A program made the position numbers and the translations under genes. Below the pieces are notes generated by a model, which had not been told where the DNA came from, did no database searches, and saw only the letters and a program-made list of their open reading frames with translations. From IMG/VR virus record IMGVR_UViG_2778261184_000007, positions 1 through 34,194 of that record: DNA of 34,194 bases; one strand, 5' to 3'. This document shows, one piece after another, positions 19,665-34,194 of the stretch; within the stretch, counting starts at the first letter, position 1, and every line of letters begins with the position of its first letter. Source of the stretch: a virus (Duplodnaviria; Heunggongvirae; Uroviricota; Caudoviricetes).

Positions 19665-19760
19665 GAGTATTTTTATAAACCTTTTTCCATTTTTAATCCT
19701 TTTTAGATCCTTTTTAGGCGTCGCTGGAGCCAGTAGTGGCGCGGGCTGTAGAGGAGGCTG

Positions 19761-19877
19761 GTGTAAGATTTGCCCTCAATTAAATACGATCGGTGTAAGA
19801 TTTGCCCTCAAAAGGTGTAAGATTTGCCCTCAAAAGGTGTAGTAATTGCCCTCAAAGTGATGTAAAAATTGCCCTCA
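19761..19877 (+). repeat. Five direct iterons (GTGTAAGATTTGCCCTCAA and variants), 22-bp phased after the first pair
   Basis: Copies at 19761, 19793, 19815, 19837, 19859; an inverted copy at 19621-19640. Confidence 0.85.
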
Positions 19878-19901
19878 CCATTTGAAGGATCACACAGGGT
19901 T

Positions 19902-20657
19902 ATGAACAGAGCGGAATTAACAGCAAAAGCAGTCAGCCTGATTGAGTCAGCGACACCTATTAGTCGTAGTTTGGCACAAGCCAATGAGATCACGGAGGCT
20001 GCTTATCACCTGACTCGCGACCAAAAGCGACTGTTGTTTATTGTGGTGGGAAGACTTCGCTATGCTTCTAAGGATGGCGTTCTTGGTTCAGGTGCCTGTG
20101 AGTTGACGGTCAACGAATATGCAGAGATGTATAATTTGCCCTCTGCTGAAGCCAGCAAGGATATTCGTAAGGCCATTTCAGGGCTTAGCGAGAAGAAAGT
20201 TACGATATATAACCCTGATGAATCGACCGAATCAGAAGACAGTTATGAGTCTTATCCTTGGATGATTAAGGATGCCTATTCACCACGGCGCGGGACTTAC
20301 ATTATTCATCTTAATCCATATCTCATGCCGTTTTTTACTCTGCTTGATAAGAGATTCACAAGGCTGAATTTTACCGAAGTATCTCGCCTTACAAATCCTT
20401 ATTCTATGCGGCTTTATGAGTCCTTATGCCAGTACAGGAAGGATGATGGAAGCGGCTTTGCCATACTTGGCGTCGAATGGATGCGGGAGCGTTATGGGTT
20501 ACCAAAAAGCTATCAGCGGTATGCCGAATTTAAGAGAAGTTTTTTAACGAAGGCTGTAGCAGAGATTGAAAAAAATACAAAAATGAAAATAGTCTTCTCA
20601 GAGGTGACGGAAGGCGGCAAAGTTACCAGGATAAAATTTACCTATCAGCAGTCTTAA
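19902..20657 (+). CDS. Iteron-binding replication initiator, Rep_3 (pSC101 RepA-like) family, about 251 aa from ATG 19902
   Basis: Motifs matching pSC101 RepA as recalled: …ELTVNEYAEMYNL…VTIYNP… and …NPYSMRLYESL…; flanked by iterons. The ORF track starts 33 nt earlier inside the iteron array. Confidence 0.8.
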   Translation: MNRAELTAKAVSLIESATPISRSLAQANEITEAAYHLTRDQKRLLFIVVGRLRYASKDGVLGSGACELTVNEYAEMYNLPSAEASKDIRKAISGLSEKKVTIYNPDESTESEDSYESYPWMIKDAYSPRRGTYIIHLNPYLMPFFTLLDKRFTRLNFTEVSRLTNPYSMRLYESLCQYRKDDGSGFAILGVEWMRERYGLPKSYQRYAEFKRSFLTKAVAEIEKNTKMKIVFSEVTEGGKVTRIKFTYQQS

Positions 20658-29789: not shown

Positions 29790-29844
29790 TTTTGGTGTTA
29801 AACATGTACCAATTTACATCCTTTTGTGTGCCTAAGTGGTGTTT

Positions 29845-30654
29845 CTATGGTTCCTTTTTGGTGTTCTTTTGGAGCGCATCGATAACGCCTTGTGGCATGA
29901 TTAAACTGATTGCCGGACTCATTACTGCATCATCCAGTAGAGAACCAGTTAACGTGATGGCGACAGCGTTCTCTAAACCTTTGGTTGCCTGAGTGGTTGA
30001 CGTTTTAATGCGACCTGTAAGGGCTACGACACCCTCACTTGCTGAGTTAATTTCGGAGAGTAAAACTTCGGCGGCTGTCACTGCTTCCCGTAAAGCATCA
30101 ATTTCATCCTGAGTAATGACTGGAGCCTGAGCGCCCCCAGCACCACCCTGTCCACCATTGCTTTCACCACCACCAGCACTTCCGGCAGCTTCAATTTTTG
30201 CGTTAATGGCGTTCATGGCGGTTTTCAGAGCATCAAGTTTTAGCGCCGTCAATGCGTCCGTTAGAGATTGCGGAATGGAAACATTCCCCATTCCCTCAAC
30301 AAGGGCGAAAGCAGGTATGGGGGTCAGCTCGTTACCTTTTGCGTAGCATTCCCAGCCAATCTTCATCTGTAACAGCTCTGATGGCTTGGTGTATGGGGAA
30401 AGAGAATCAGCCAGTGATGAAGACGCTTTGCTGGCCTCATTGAGCTGTTCAGAAAAGCCAAGCAATTGAGTAGTCCAGGCCGAAACAGAATCAGGATAGG
30501 TTTTATCGGCGTGAACTATTCCCTGTATGGCGCTGGCGAGCGATGAGGCTTTTACAGAAGCTGCCCGGCTTATGGTTATAGATTCTGGTGTAGAGATACC
30601 GGCATCTGACAGAATTTTGAAGGCTTTAACTTCACCTATTGAATCAAGCATTAT
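29845..30654 (-). CDS. 269-aa Ser/Ala/Gly-rich protein translationally coupled to the PAAR-like gene
   Basis: ATGA overlap with the upstream gene stop; internal Gly-rich linker GSAGGGESNGGQGGAGGAQAP. The ORF track extends upstream on an alternative start. Confidence 0.5.
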   Translation of the reverse strand: MMLDSIGEVKAFKILSDAGISTPESITISRAASVKASSLASAIQGIVHADKTYPDSVSAWTTQLLGFSEQLNEASKASSSLADSLSPYTKPSELLQMKIGWECYAKGNELTPIPAFALVEGMGNVSIPQSLTDALTALKLDALKTAMNAINAKIEAAGSAGGGESNGGQGGAGGAQAPVITQDEIDALREAVTAAEVLLSEINSASEGVVALTGRIKTSTTQATKGLENAVAITLTGSLLDDAVMSPAISLIMPQGVIDALQKNTKKEP

Positions 30655-30979: not shown

Positions 30980-31176
30980 TCGTCATTCAAACTGAGAGTT
31001 AAATTTCGGAATATTTTTGTATTCTCAATTCATTCTCAAATAAATCTCACTGTCAGACCATCATTCATTTGGTGATTAAGATATTCTCAAAATGAACTCA
31101 ATAATCACTCTTTTTTATCTCTTTTGGTGTGGATTTTTGGTTGCTTCTCTTTTAAAATTGCATTTTGATTCTCAAA
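30980..31176. repeat. Centromere-like repeat region upstream of parM (parC-type)
   Basis: Repeated ATTCTCAA(A) units at 31021, 31032, 31083, 31168 and TCATTCA variants in an AT-rich divergent promoter region. Confidence 0.5.
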
Positions 31177-31201
31177 TGTGTCTCAGAAGTGGAGCAAGAA
31201 G

Positions 31202-32158
31202 ATGCGCATTTTTATCGATGATGGTTCAACCAATATCAAAATGCTGTGGGAGCACGACGGGGAAACTCGCACTCACATCAGCCCTAACAGCTTTAAGCGC
31301 GGATGGTCAGCAACATTTGGTGCGGGCAAGCCGTTTAACTATGTCATTGACGACGAAAAGTATTCGTATGATTTGATCTCGCCAGATGTTCTGCCGACGA
31401 ATAACGTGGAATGGCAATACAGCCCGCTTAACGTCCTGGCTGTTCACCATGCCCTGCTGACAAGTGGCATTGAGCCGCAGGAAGTAGAAATTGTGGTCAC
31501 GCTGCCTCTGGCGGAGTTTTACGACGACGACGCGCAATACAATCTCGATAACATCGAGCGCAAGAAAGCCAGCCTTATGCGCCCCGTCACGCTGAATAAA
31601 GGCAATGTGTTCACGATTAAGAAAGTTACGGTACGCCCGGAGTCTATTCCGGCAGGAATTGGCCTGTGCGACAATCTGAACCCTGCCCATTCTGTTCTTA
31701 TCGTCGATTTGGGTGGAACTACCCTTGATGTTTCAATGGTCGCCGGGCAAATGACGGCAGTTTCCCGTGTTTTTGGCGATTCGAATCTTGGCGTCTCTCT
31801 GGTTACCAGGGAAGTAAGGCAAGCACTTGCCAGAGCCAATACCGAAACGTCAAATTACAATGTCGATCAGCTCATTATTAACCGCCACGATGAAGATTAT
31901 CTGAACGACAATATCAATGACCCATCAGCGGTTGGTGATGTGAAAAAGGCCATTGCCGCAAGCATTGACCGTCTGCGTACCCGCGTTCTTGATGTGATTG
32001 GCGACTTTAAAGGATATACGCATGTCATGGTGATCGGTGGTGGCGCACCGCTGGTGGCAGATGCAATTCGCGAGCAAGTTAATATTCGTGATGACCGTTT
32101 CTTCGTGGCGGATGACCCGCAACTTGCTCTTGTTCATGGCCTGAAAGCAATCGGTTAA
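31202..32158 (+). CDS. parM: Actin-like plasmid segregation ATPase ParM/StbA (318 aa from ATG)
   Basis: N-terminus MRIFIDDGSTNIKMLW…HISPNSFK…, …NVEWQYSPLNVLAVHHALLTSG… and DLGGTTLD match the R1/R100 ParM/StbA pattern; SD GGAG 7 nt upstream. Confidence 0.85.
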   Translation: MRIFIDDGSTNIKMLWEHDGETRTHISPNSFKRGWSATFGAGKPFNYVIDDEKYSYDLISPDVLPTNNVEWQYSPLNVLAVHHALLTSGIEPQEVEIVVTLPLAEFYDDDAQYNLDNIERKKASLMRPVTLNKGNVFTIKKVTVRPESIPAGIGLCDNLNPAHSVLIVDLGGTTLDVSMVAGQMTAVSRVFGDSNLGVSLVTREVRQALARANTETSNYNVDQLIINRHDEDYLNDNINDPSAVGDVKKAIAASIDRLRTRVLDVIGDFKGYTHVMVIGGGAPLVADAIREQVNIRDDRFFVADDPQLALVHGLKAIG

Positions 32159-32165
32159 CGAGGTA

Positions 32166-32510
32166 ATGTCCATGTCTCAGGAACGTAAGAAAGTGATGAT
32201 TTATCTTCGCCCAGAGGCTTATGCCAATGAAAAGGCGGCGAGCGAGAAGATAAAAAAACATAGCGATATGGCAAGAACCGCATTGTTGGCAGGGCTTGCG
32301 CTGGGAGAAGTCGATAGCAGGCTTCCAGGATTACTGGCTTCCCTGCTGACCGAAGACAATAACCCGGAGCTGATCCGAAAAATGCTGGCATCCTTCCTGG
32401 AACTACCAGCTGCGGTTGAGGAGCGCCCTGCCTCCATTGAGCCAGTGAAGGAGCAAGTTGTTGCCAAAAGCGCGTCGGCGCGCAATCTGGCTGACTCTCT
32501 ACCTGATTGA
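32166..32510 (+). CDS. parR: ParR/StbB-like centromere-binding adaptor (114 aa)
   Basis: Directly downstream of parM; …RTALLAGLALGE… resembles the ParR helix. Confidence 0.6.
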   Translation: MSMSQERKKVMIYLRPEAYANEKAASEKIKKHSDMARTALLAGLALGEVDSRLPGLLASLLTEDNNPELIRKMLASFLELPAAVEERPASIEPVKEQVVAKSASARNLADSLPD

Positions 32511-32528
32511 CAGAAGATGTGCTGGTTT

Positions 32529-32554
32529 AAGGCTGCAAATTGCAGCCTTTTTTA
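32529..32554 (+). terminator. Rho-independent terminator after parR
   Basis: GGCTGC-AAATT-GCAGCC followed by TTTTTTA. Confidence 0.7.
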
Positions 32555-32583
32555 TGCATTAATGGTGTCTAATTGGTGTTAAT

Positions 32584-32764
32584 CTGGAACCAGTTAGGTG
32601 CTGTTATGGTGTAATTTTGTATCTGGTTCCAATTTGGGGCTGATTTCGTGTTAAATAGGATGCAATATAAGGTGTATTTGGTCTGATTGATGTTATACTT
32701 TGCCAAACATTCATGACTCCATTATAGAGCCTGTCCCGCATCAAAAAGGCTCTTATCTGGAACC
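32584..32764. repeat. Operator/centromere-like repeats upstream of the ParA-type gene
   Basis: CTGGAACC at 32584 and 32757 and the inverted CTGGTTCC at 32623, interspersed with GGTGT repeats. Confidence 0.45.
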
Positions 32765-32797
32765 GTTTTGATACCAAAATCACACCGAGGAACGGAT

Positions 32798-33439
32798 ATG
32801 ATTATATTGGTAGCCAGCCAAAAAGGTGGCTGTGGCAAATCAACCACCAGCGTAAATATTTGTGCGGAGCTTGCCCGCGCAAATAAGGACGTAGTTCTAC
32901 TTGATGCAGATAAGCAAGGAACATCTGCCCGTTGGGCATCGGACCGTAATGCGGCAGAGGTTTCTCCAGTAATTCATTGCGTCCAGAAGTTTGGGAATAT
33001 TCGTGAAACACTTCTTGATCTGGACAAGCGTTATGAATTTGTGGTTGTTGATACCGCTGGTCGTGATAGCAAAGAAATGCGCACCGGTATTACTGCGGCG
33101 GATGTTTTGCTTGTTCCATTCAGGCCATCTCAGCCAGATTTAGACACTCTGGCGCATTTTGTTGAAGTCTTTGAAGAGGCTTTGGATCTGATGCCTAATC
33201 CTAGCATTAAGGCGTGCGCAGTCTTAACAATGGCCCCATCCAATCCGGTTGTGAATGAAGCCAATGAGGCCAAAGAGTACCTGGCTGAATATCCGCAACT
33301 GAAGTTGCTGAAAACCATCATTCGCGATCGCAAGGTTTACCGCGATTGTATGGCTGAAGGGAAGGGCGTTGTTGAGATGGACAACGGGAAAGCTAAAGGT
33401 GAAATCCAGATGTTGGTTAAGGAGTTATTAAGTGATTAA
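32798..33439 (+). CDS. Small Walker-type partition ATPase (ParA/ParF-like, 213 aa from ATG)
   Basis: Deviant Walker A KGGCGKST near the N-terminus; size typical of type Ib ParA; SD GAGG 7 nt upstream. The ORF track adds 10 codons upstream. Confidence 0.85.
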   Translation: MIILVASQKGGCGKSTTSVNICAELARANKDVVLLDADKQGTSARWASDRNAAEVSPVIHCVQKFGNIRETLLDLDKRYEFVVVDTAGRDSKEMRTGITAADVLLVPFRPSQPDLDTLAHFVEVFEEALDLMPNPSIKACAVLTMAPSNPVVNEANEAKEYLAEYPQLKLLKTIIRDRKVYRDCMAEGKGVVEMDNGKAKGEIQMLVKELLSD

Positions 33440-33719
33440 GCCTCGTAAATCGGTAAAAGCCCCCGAAGTAAAAGACCTCGATCTTGAACGCCGAATTGAG
33501 GCTTTTGCCAGCAAAGCTGATTTGGTGCCGGGTGAGCAACCAGAAGACAACAAAGTGCTCGATAAGGACGCCCCACGTGATTTTAAATCCATTCGTGTTG
33601 GCTTCAATGAATACGAGTACCAGGTACTTGATGCGTTAAGCAAAAAGCATAATCGCAGCAAATTGAATATGATCCGCCATGCTATCCTCATGTTAGCGGA
33701 GTCTGAGGAAGCAAAATAA
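33432..33719 (+). CDS. Small ribbon-helix-helix-type partner protein (ParG-like, 95 aa, GTG start)
   Basis: Overlaps the parA stop; C-terminal …VGFNEYEYQVLDALSKKHNRSKLNMIRHAILMLAE… looks like an RHH DNA-binding domain; SD AAGGAG. Confidence 0.5.
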   Translation: MIKPRKSVKAPEVKDLDLERRIEAFASKADLVPGEQPEDNKVLDKDAPRDFKSIRVGFNEYEYQVLDALSKKHNRSKLNMIRHAILMLAESEEAK

Positions 33720-33760
33720 AGTCTTTCAGGTTGGTTTTAGAACTTAAAAAGTTTTGAACC

Positions 33761-33833
33761 AAAGGTGCACCAATACACCACTAATTTGGTGCACTTTTAC
33801 ATCCTTTTTTGGTACCAATTGTGCACCATTTGT
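33761..33833. repeat. Cluster of GGTGCACC-type palindromes downstream of the partition genes
   Basis: AAAGGTGCACCAA, TTTGGTGCACTTTT, TTGGTACCAATTGTGCACCATTTG; function unknown. Confidence 0.4.
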
Positions 33834-33988
33834 CATTAATTTACTTATGCGCAAAAGTGGGCTTCATGAAAAAGCTCATTATTGAAATAACGATAGAAAG
33901 CAATTTCTAATCAACTAGTGGTTGTCAGCCTATTCGGCTTATAAGATCATACGCTGTTATACGTTGTTTACGCTTTGAGGAATCCACA

Positions 33989-34194
33989 ATGAGTGAGGCA
34001 GAAGCCCGCCCGACTAACTTCATTCGTCAGATCATCGATGAAGATCTGGCCAGTGGTAAGCACACCACAGTACATACCCGTTTCCCGCCGGAACCAAATG
34101 GCTATCTGCATATTGGTCATGCGAAATCTATCTGCCTGAACTTCGGGATCGCCCAGGACTATAAAGGCCAGTGCAACCTGCGTTTCGACGACAC
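33989..34194 (+). CDS. glnS: Glutaminyl-tRNA synthetase, 5' partial (first 68 codons; runs off the window)
   Basis: Translation [68 protein letters not shown] matches the enterobacterial GlnRS N-terminus including the class I HIGH motif; SD GAGG upstream. Confidence 0.9.

Follow-up and report, generated by a model that had tools for sequence, protein, structure and literature searches.

Predicted type II and type Ib partition modules in tandem on a D6-like phage-plasmid

How is a phage-plasmid inherited when two different segregation loci lie side by side on its DNA? The question is raised by a 34,194-nucleotide stretch of Caudoviricetes DNA (IMG/VR virus record IMGVR_UViG_2778261184_000007, positions 1 to 34,194, hereafter the window), in which an earlier reading made from the letters alone (the sequence-only reading) had placed two partition systems in tandem at 30980-33719 and had suggested that the pair could secure very tight inheritance or that one of them might be a remnant. 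Following this up computationally, we put at roughly 85% the probability that the window belongs to a D6-like phage-plasmid that has for partition nothing but two tandem segregation modules, each of them complete, functional and independent of the other. Gene identity, intact motifs, adaptor fold, phased repeat arrays, purifying selection, family-wide conservation and a mosaic history are observed and carry this view; on the same sequence grounds, the adaptors would be expected to bind DNA, the operons to regulate themselves, the ATPase of ParA to be stimulated and the plasmid to be stabilised.

By sequence identity the window is part of a D6-like, P1-related phage-plasmid, and P1 itself is excluded, because its region 30900-34194 matches Escherichia phage D6 (MF356679, 56838-60130) at 96.2% over 100% of the query and matches a 91.6-kb non-mobilizable E. 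coli plasmid at 99.9%. Plasmid records matching this region number 136. Further comparisons drew on two diverged D6-like lineages, L004 and L006, and on an IncI plasmid (L002). The GenBank record of D6 gives the local order as upfB, upfC (PAAR), orf58 ('StbA type'), orf59 ('StbB type'), orf60, orf61, glnS, dmt and hrdC, with orf60 labelled 'possible ParA partitioning function' and orf61 hypothetical; neither P1-type parA/parB nor any further par genes are annotated anywhere in that record.

The first locus has the make-up of a type II ParMRC system, as its sequence presents an actin-fold ParM, a downstream ParR and a promoter-overlapping iteron array, and every element that had been picked out beforehand, from the repeat array through parM and parR to the terminator, was found at 31015-32556. 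On the + strand, parM (31202..32158) encodes a predicted actin-like segregation ATPase of 318 aa, which matches Pfam families PF06406 (StbA_N, 1.8e-69) and PF21523 (ParM C-terminal domain, 7e-55) and along its whole length aligns with structures of R1 ParM (4a62/1mwk) at 54% identity (E ~1e-111). Its nucleotide-binding motifs FIDDGSTNIK, DLGGTTLD and VIGGGA (phosphate-1, phosphate-2 and adenosine) are intact and identical to those of R1. Starting 14 nt past the parM stop, and with an alternative ATG at 32166, parR (32172..32510, +) encodes a predicted centromere-binding adaptor of the StbB type (112 aa; PF10784 Plasmid_stab_B, 3.5e-11), whose sole solved relative, PDB 2jd3 (deposited as 'StbB protein'; pB171 ParR), is matched by the N-terminal residues 4-76 (E 1.1e-6). 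The operon would end at an intrinsic terminator detected by a terminator scan at 32529..32556 (+), with a 9-bp stem AAGGCTGCA/TGCAGCCTT at 32529-32549 followed by a T run; this is the sole portion of the parR-parA intergenic region kept in L004 and L006.

The candidate centromere and operator of this locus, a parC-like array at 31015..31190 (+), lies 5' of parM and is built of roughly nine units of the TTCTCA type, phased at 11 bp, with starts at 31022, 31033, 31044, 31084, 31095, 31117, 31145, 31169 and 31180 (unit span 31022-31185), with a degenerate tenth near 31106. The region upstream of parM contains TCTCA 6 times where 0.2 occurrences are expected, and the lag-11 autocorrelation of the array reaches 0.45 against 0.30 (z=4.1; 0/1000 shuffles as high). 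The corresponding regions of L004 and L006 are 80% and 72% identical to that of the window, and a four-way alignment of window, D6, L004 and L006 leaves the TTCTCA/CTCA cores and a TGTGGAT...TTTTAAAAT block invariant and the spacers variable, and thus gives the footprint expected for iterons around a promoter. A candidate parM promoter would lie within the array, with TGTGGAT at 31127-31133 and a -10 element, TAAAAT, at 31153-31158. The arrangement resembles R1 parMRC in its order of parC, parM, parR and terminator and in the 11-bp-phased units around the candidate promoter; in R1, parC consists of ten 11-bp iterons flanking the promoter. It differs in that the TTCTCA core and the 3+4+1+2 grouping of iterons are specific to the D6-like lineage, and in that the window ParR is nearer to the StbB-type ParR of pB171 than to R1 ParR. 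Outside plasmids, P88-like temperate phages (Xuanwuvirus, records H215-H227, ~35 kb) carry a full-length ParM homologue 48% identical to that of the window; these we take to be P2-like, integrating phages, in which the carriage of a plasmid-segregation actin is puzzling.

Directly behind the terminator stands the second locus, whose sequence combines a small deviant Walker A ATPase, a downstream ribbon-helix-helix (RHH) adaptor and adjoining repeat arrays, and which we therefore assign, as predicted, to type Ib. Its parA (32798..33439, +), beginning 287 bp past the parR stop, encodes a predicted Walker-type partition ATPase of 213 aa that lacks a helix-turn-helix (HTH) domain at its N-terminus. 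The protein matches the Pfam families AAA_31, MipZ and CbiA, and its closest solved relative is ParF of TP228 (4dzz; E 3e-18, full length). All three motifs are intact: the deviant Walker A SQKGGCGKST (KGGCGKS at residues 9-15), the A' motif VVLLDADKQG and the B motif FVVVDTAG. The small Walker-type ParA that had been proposed is thus borne out in size, motifs and nearest relative, and the inactivating mutations in nucleotide-binding motifs that would have told against the proposal were looked for in both ATPases and found in neither.

The partner gene (33432..33719, +) starts with a GTG that overlaps the parA stop and encodes a predicted ParB-like, centromere-binding adaptor of 95 aa, in which a basic N-terminus (MIKPRK) is followed by a helix at 15-29 and, past a linker, by an RHH domain at the C-terminal end (strand 52-58, helices 60-73 and 77-94). 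Searched directly against Pfam, NCBIfam and PDB sequences, this protein gave no match, and a word-indexed homologue search returned close relatives only; a full HMMER scan uncovered a family whose 75-100-aa proteins fall into about 100 clusters at 50% identity (P0016-P0113). This family is without a Pfam or NCBIfam model, and its members carry the label 'hypothetical protein' in nearly all records. Near-invariant in the family are M1, R5, F25, A29, D30, N59, E62, L66, R75 and R82, which include the basic N-terminus (M1, R5), and helix 15-29 is conserved. A first AlphaFold model from a shallow alignment of 11 close sequences was poor (predicted local distance difference test score, pLDDT, 58) and was superseded by one from 54 sequences, with a pLDDT of 86.9 overall and of 91-99 per 10-residue block across residues 41-90. 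The best solved Foldseek matches to this model are CopG (TM-target 0.84, root-mean-square deviation 1.1 A), TacA, Arc and ParG, with many further RHH proteins ranking below them; within the family, RHH-clan Pfam models match 22/54 members (NikA-like) and 17/54 (RHH_1), and the family profile finds CopG as its best PDB match (E 0.16), across the strand and both helices. Given the confident model, the fold matches and the RHH-clan matches among family members, we accept the adaptor at the level of its predicted fold as an RHH protein, which turns what had been a guess from the sequence into a supported assignment.

Neither locus is the ParA/ParB pair classically associated with P1, as had been stated from the sequence, and the difference is one of both protein size and fold. 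The P1 system (type Ia ParA-ParB-parS) serves the same function in a phage-plasmid related to this one; in place of a ~330-aa HTH/CTPase ParB, however, the window has the 95-aa RHH adaptor, beside a ParA without the N-terminal HTH, and among the window par proteins no ParB-type Pfam match was found.

The cis sequences of the second locus proved more extensive than first described. The sequence-only reading had given it a repeat set of its own, CTGGAACC/CTGGTTCC; these sites are real (CTGGAACC at 32584 and 32757, CTGGTTCC at 32623), but they are just three units of a larger 11-bp-phased array of TGGTRY/GGWACC elements. The 34-kb window as a whole has 5 matches to CTGGWWCC, of which these three sites account for 4, since the one at 32584 is palindromic. 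The upstream array (32560..32690, +; parS/parC1-like) comprises about 11 units phased at 11 bp, their GG falling at 32564, 32575, 32586, 32597 and 32608 and then at 32625, 32636, 32647, 32658, 32671 and 32680; its units are TGGTGY, the commonest, or variants of GGWACC, and its lag-11 signal stands at z=3.4 (z=4.1 for the whole parR-parA spacer). There follows a candidate promoter and leader of parA (32691..32797, +), with an extended -10 element, TGTTATACT, at 32691-32699, which probably serves as the parA promoter, a ribosome-binding site GAGGAA at 32787-32792, and further motif units in the leader at 32757 (CTGGAACC), 32770 (GATACC) and 32781 (CACACC); the TGnTATACT form of the -10 element is kept in L004 and L006 despite diverged surroundings.

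A second array, parC2-like, lies past the operon at 33755..33835 (+), where GGTGCACC at 33764, ACACCA at 33775, TGGTGC at 33787, TGGTACCA at 33810 and GCACCA at 33823 give a lag-11 autocorrelation of 0.47 against 0.26 (z=4.4). The extent first assigned to the pair of loci, 30980-33719, therefore takes in all four genes but stops short of this array. In L004 and L006 both flanks of the parA operon are too diverged to align with those of the window, yet both sides carry phased arrays of the same TGGTRY/GGWACC motif, and in each of these lineages a motif array directly 3' of the adaptor gene is followed by a terminator. The six flanks of the three lineages together hold 31 copies of TGGTRY, where 2.7 would be expected, and 17 of GGWACC, where the expectation is 0.3. 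Because L004 and L006 lack glnS and still carry the downstream array, the array belongs to the par locus; that it might be a glnS operator was considered and ruled out on the same ground. The predicted DNA-reading strand of the adaptor, KSIRV(G/S)FNEYEY, is near-invariant across the window, L004 and L006 lineages, which is consistent with the motif common to them.

Selection has acted on both loci. Against D6, L004 and L006, the ratio of nonsynonymous to synonymous substitution rates (dN/dS) is 0.025-0.043 for parM, 0.07-0.16 for parR, 0.01-0.05 for parA and 0.06-0.11 for the adaptor gene, at synonymous divergences (dS) of up to ~0.9; all four open reading frames are intact in the window, D6, L004 and L006, and both loci occur in one piece in 113 of the 123 matching PLSDB plasmid records. 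Since the motifs are intact and dN/dS is 0.01-0.16 in all four genes, neither locus is, by its sequence, a remnant, and both are maintained by selection; the suggestion that one of them might be a relic did not survive. The history of the two loci is a separate one. Between the window and L004, dS is 0.03 for parM and 0.92 for parA, and between L004 and L006 the pattern is reversed (parA 0.19, parM 0.44), with the breakpoint just past the terminator. These opposite dS patterns indicate that the loci have been reassorted independently among D6-like lineages by modular exchange, in line with the modular acquisition that the sequence-only reading had proposed.

A number of points nevertheless weigh against two complete and functional modules. 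Function at either locus is argued from homology and sequence signatures, and in the literature searched, in which the description of D6 was covered through its GenBank notes, neither locus of a D6-like element was found to have been studied by experiment. The upstream array of the window is degenerate, many of its units reading TGGAAC, TGGGGC or CGTGT rather than TGGTGY. At the second locus no characterised ParB, ParG or omega is matched significantly by the adaptor in direct sequence comparison, a domain of only ~45 residues leaves its Foldseek E-values weak (at least 0.8), and ParA, although aligned over its full length with the NCBIfam model NF041546 (ParA_partition), scores 158 bits, under the 180-bit cut-off. 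Finally, frameshifts occur in individual complete plasmid records, in parA of NZ_CP031917 (L009), in parM of NZ_CP115379 (L010) and in both genes of NZ_CP069647 (L011), and if these are real, each locus is perhaps individually dispensable.

The frameshifts bear on the idea that one locus is decaying or non-functional and that the other alone segregates the prophage, an idea that could also appeal to other plasmids with two par systems, in which one is often dominant (SCP1, R27; PMC13245405). The affected records may, however, reflect either real losses or assembly errors; L011 and a further record, NZ_MK356557 (L005), carry several frameshifts, so that sequencing error is a candidate cause. 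With the four reading frames and the nucleotide-binding motifs intact, dN/dS held low at high dS, cis arrays kept in diverged lineages and both loci retained in nearly all relatives, we regard a remnant as very improbable. As a separate observation, L005 has an internal deletion in parM in addition to many indels.

The adaptor and ParA scores bear instead on whether the second locus serves partition at all, or pairs a ParA-like ATPase with an RHH transcription factor for copy-number or gene regulation, for control of the adjacent glnS or for placing a cargo of another kind. Most RHH proteins act as repressors, the best fold match of the adaptor is CopG, pYU39_89 labels a nearby gene 'cop', and a possible third motif cluster sits in a promoter-like gap ~2.7 kb away. 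What argues for partition is the type Ib signature as a whole, in which a small ParA is joined by a short RHH gene that overlaps it and by arrays on either side of the operon, as in the tested pESBL locus and in pB171 and pSM19035 (PMC7602700). Further support comes from the ParA itself, which is 45% identical to the pESBL-type ParA of the IncI plasmid L002 and has a 67% identical homologue that stands, together with a small partner, beside repB on an unrelated plasmid. The downstream array persists in lineages without glnS, as noted above, and type Ib adaptors are normally repressors and centromere binders both, so that a regulatory role would be compatible with partition. A purely non-partition role for this locus thus appears improbable.

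Granted two functional modules, they need not be independent: the loci might be functionally coupled, through regulatory cross-talk of the kind known from pB171 or through adaptor arrays that bracket parMRC as a composite centromere. Their contiguity in 113/123 relatives would fit such coupling, as would the third cluster just mentioned (29790..29868, no strand assigned), in which TGGTGT occurs three times beside GTACCA and GGTTCC and which would place adaptor sites on both flanks of parMRC. It lies in and beside a 55-bp gap between orf55-like and upfB-like genes, ~1.3 kb 5' of parC, has 4/5 units in 11-bp phase (29793, 29837, 29848/9, 29859), and has the 13-mer TTTACATCCTTTT in common with the downstream array; L006, diverged as it is, retains the motif. 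By count, however, the cluster is marginal, an equal density arising in 7% of shuffles. A TGGTGT within the parM promoter region (31125-31130), present in the window and in D6, was also considered as a cross-talk motif and rejected, its GGTG being conserved in neither L004 nor L006. A strong terminator separates the operons, the two repeat families are unmixed, with no TTCTCA unit in the arrays of the second locus, and the loci recombine independently. Coupling is accordingly unlikely in our estimation. One specific form of it, in which the adaptor would bind three arrays (29790-29868, 32560-32790 and 33755-33835) bracketing parMRC, either as one extended, looped or paired centromere region shared by both machines or for co-regulation, is doubtful; were it true, D6-like phage-plasmids would have a version of pB171 cross-talk of their own, in tandem orientation.

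We therefore return to two independent modules, for which a division of labour can be proposed. At the first locus, ParR dimers would coat the 11-bp-phased TTCTCA iterons of parC, and, as the candidate promoter lies inside these iterons, the operon would repress itself; ParM-ATP filaments, their ends captured by ParR/parC, would push sister plasmids apart. At the second, the RHH adaptor would bind cooperatively to the 11-bp-phased TGGTRY/GGWACC units, with one array around the parA promoter and one past the operon, and its basic N-terminal tail would stimulate the ATPase of nucleoid-bound ParA dimers, while plasmids following the ParA gradient would come to be evenly spaced over the nucleoid. 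The terminator would keep the two transcription units apart.

Among characterised systems, a close parallel to the pair is the double par locus of pB171, in which an actin-type system (par1, type II) and a small-ParA/RHH-ParB system (par2, type Ib) are likewise adjacent on one replicon, and to whose ParR structure the window ParR is related. This double locus was reportedly described by Ebersbach and Gerdes in 2001 and by Ringgaard and colleagues in 2007. Its two operons diverge around a shared parC1, with regulatory cross-talk between them; that layout is not the one found here, where the operons are tandem, both on the + strand, with a terminator between them and no shared site. An enteropathogenic E. 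coli (EPEC) plasmid (H114), tried as a stand-in for pB171 par2, carries only R1/F-type parMR and was set aside. Repeat arrays upstream and downstream of the operon, parC1 and parC2, have been described for the type Ib operon of pB171 (PMC4270457, PMC7602700). In the IncI plasmid pESBL, a type Ib locus stabilises mini-F, and its ParB binds octamer arrays upstream and downstream in electrophoretic mobility shift assays (PMC7602700). The second locus of the window shares with it the ~100-aa adaptor overlapping the parA stop and the short-repeat arrays on both sides of the operon; its repeat is a TGGTRY/GGWACC hexamer at 11-bp pitch, in contrast to the contiguous 8-bp GATAACAA of pESBL, and between the window adaptor and that of L002, an IncI plasmid with exactly this octamer layout, there is no detectable sequence similarity.

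With ParF-ParG-parH of TP228 (4dzz, 1p94), the kinship lies in ParF as nearest solved relative of ParA and in ParG, an RHH protein whose N-terminal tail is flexible, as one of the fold matches of the adaptor. Sequence identity is low, and the window has arrays on both sides of its operon; parH, by contrast, consists of ACTC tetramer boxes in one array, upstream only. Plasmids with two partition types on one low-copy replicon are themselves familiar. Shigella pINV has two functional systems, ParAB and StbAB (PMC6519299), and a 2026 survey counted the pairing of type I-RHH with type II on 971 PLSDB plasmids and called the combination previously reported (PMC13245405). Compared with these examples and with R27, what differs here is that the carrier is a phage-plasmid and that the loci are directly contiguous. 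For D6 and its relatives, too, parts of the picture had been noted, in a 2021 table whose D6 entry reads 'ParA-Ib-type ATPase; RHH domain-containing protein' (PMC8026635) and in a 2019 paper that took cop, parA, stbB and parM for the partition system of a D6-like plasmid (PMC6799933).

Elsewhere in the window, 22-bp iterons (3.9 copies, GGTGTAAGAATTGCCCTCAAAA) and an 11-bp repeat at 19686-19877 stand just 5' of a replication initiator reading frame (19869-20657), the counterpart of orf42, the annotated plasmid replication initiator of D6. The replicon would thus lie ~11 kb away from the par loci; in P1, unlike in this D6-like layout, repA and parAB are adjacent. Directly 3' of the par loci, as in D6, begins glnS (glutaminyl-tRNA synthetase; 33990-34194 in the window). 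In L004 and L006 glnS is absent and the terminator is followed by other genes in its place, so that glnS is, by this comparison of sequences, a lineage-specific cargo insertion just beyond the downstream par array. Rfam and tRNA scans of the window gave no matches.

Taken for what it is, the tandem of type II and type Ib systems is real but ordinary, and the conceptual addition is small, since such pairs are common on enterobacterial plasmids and the genes were already annotated in phage D6; the mechanisms of both system types are textbook matter. New here are the fold-level support for the adaptor, the definition of both centromere-like arrays, the purifying selection and the independent exchange of the loci. 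For annotation, the gain is an identity for an adaptor family now filed for the most part as hypothetical, and for experiments the defined cis sites are supplied. D6-like phage-plasmids are found widely across E. coli, Shigella and Salmonella, invasive multidrug-resistant lineages among them, and their stable carriage hinges on maintenance functions; reliance on a type II and a type Ib system, and not on P1 ParAB, predicts that these elements would show partition-based incompatibility with other plasmids.

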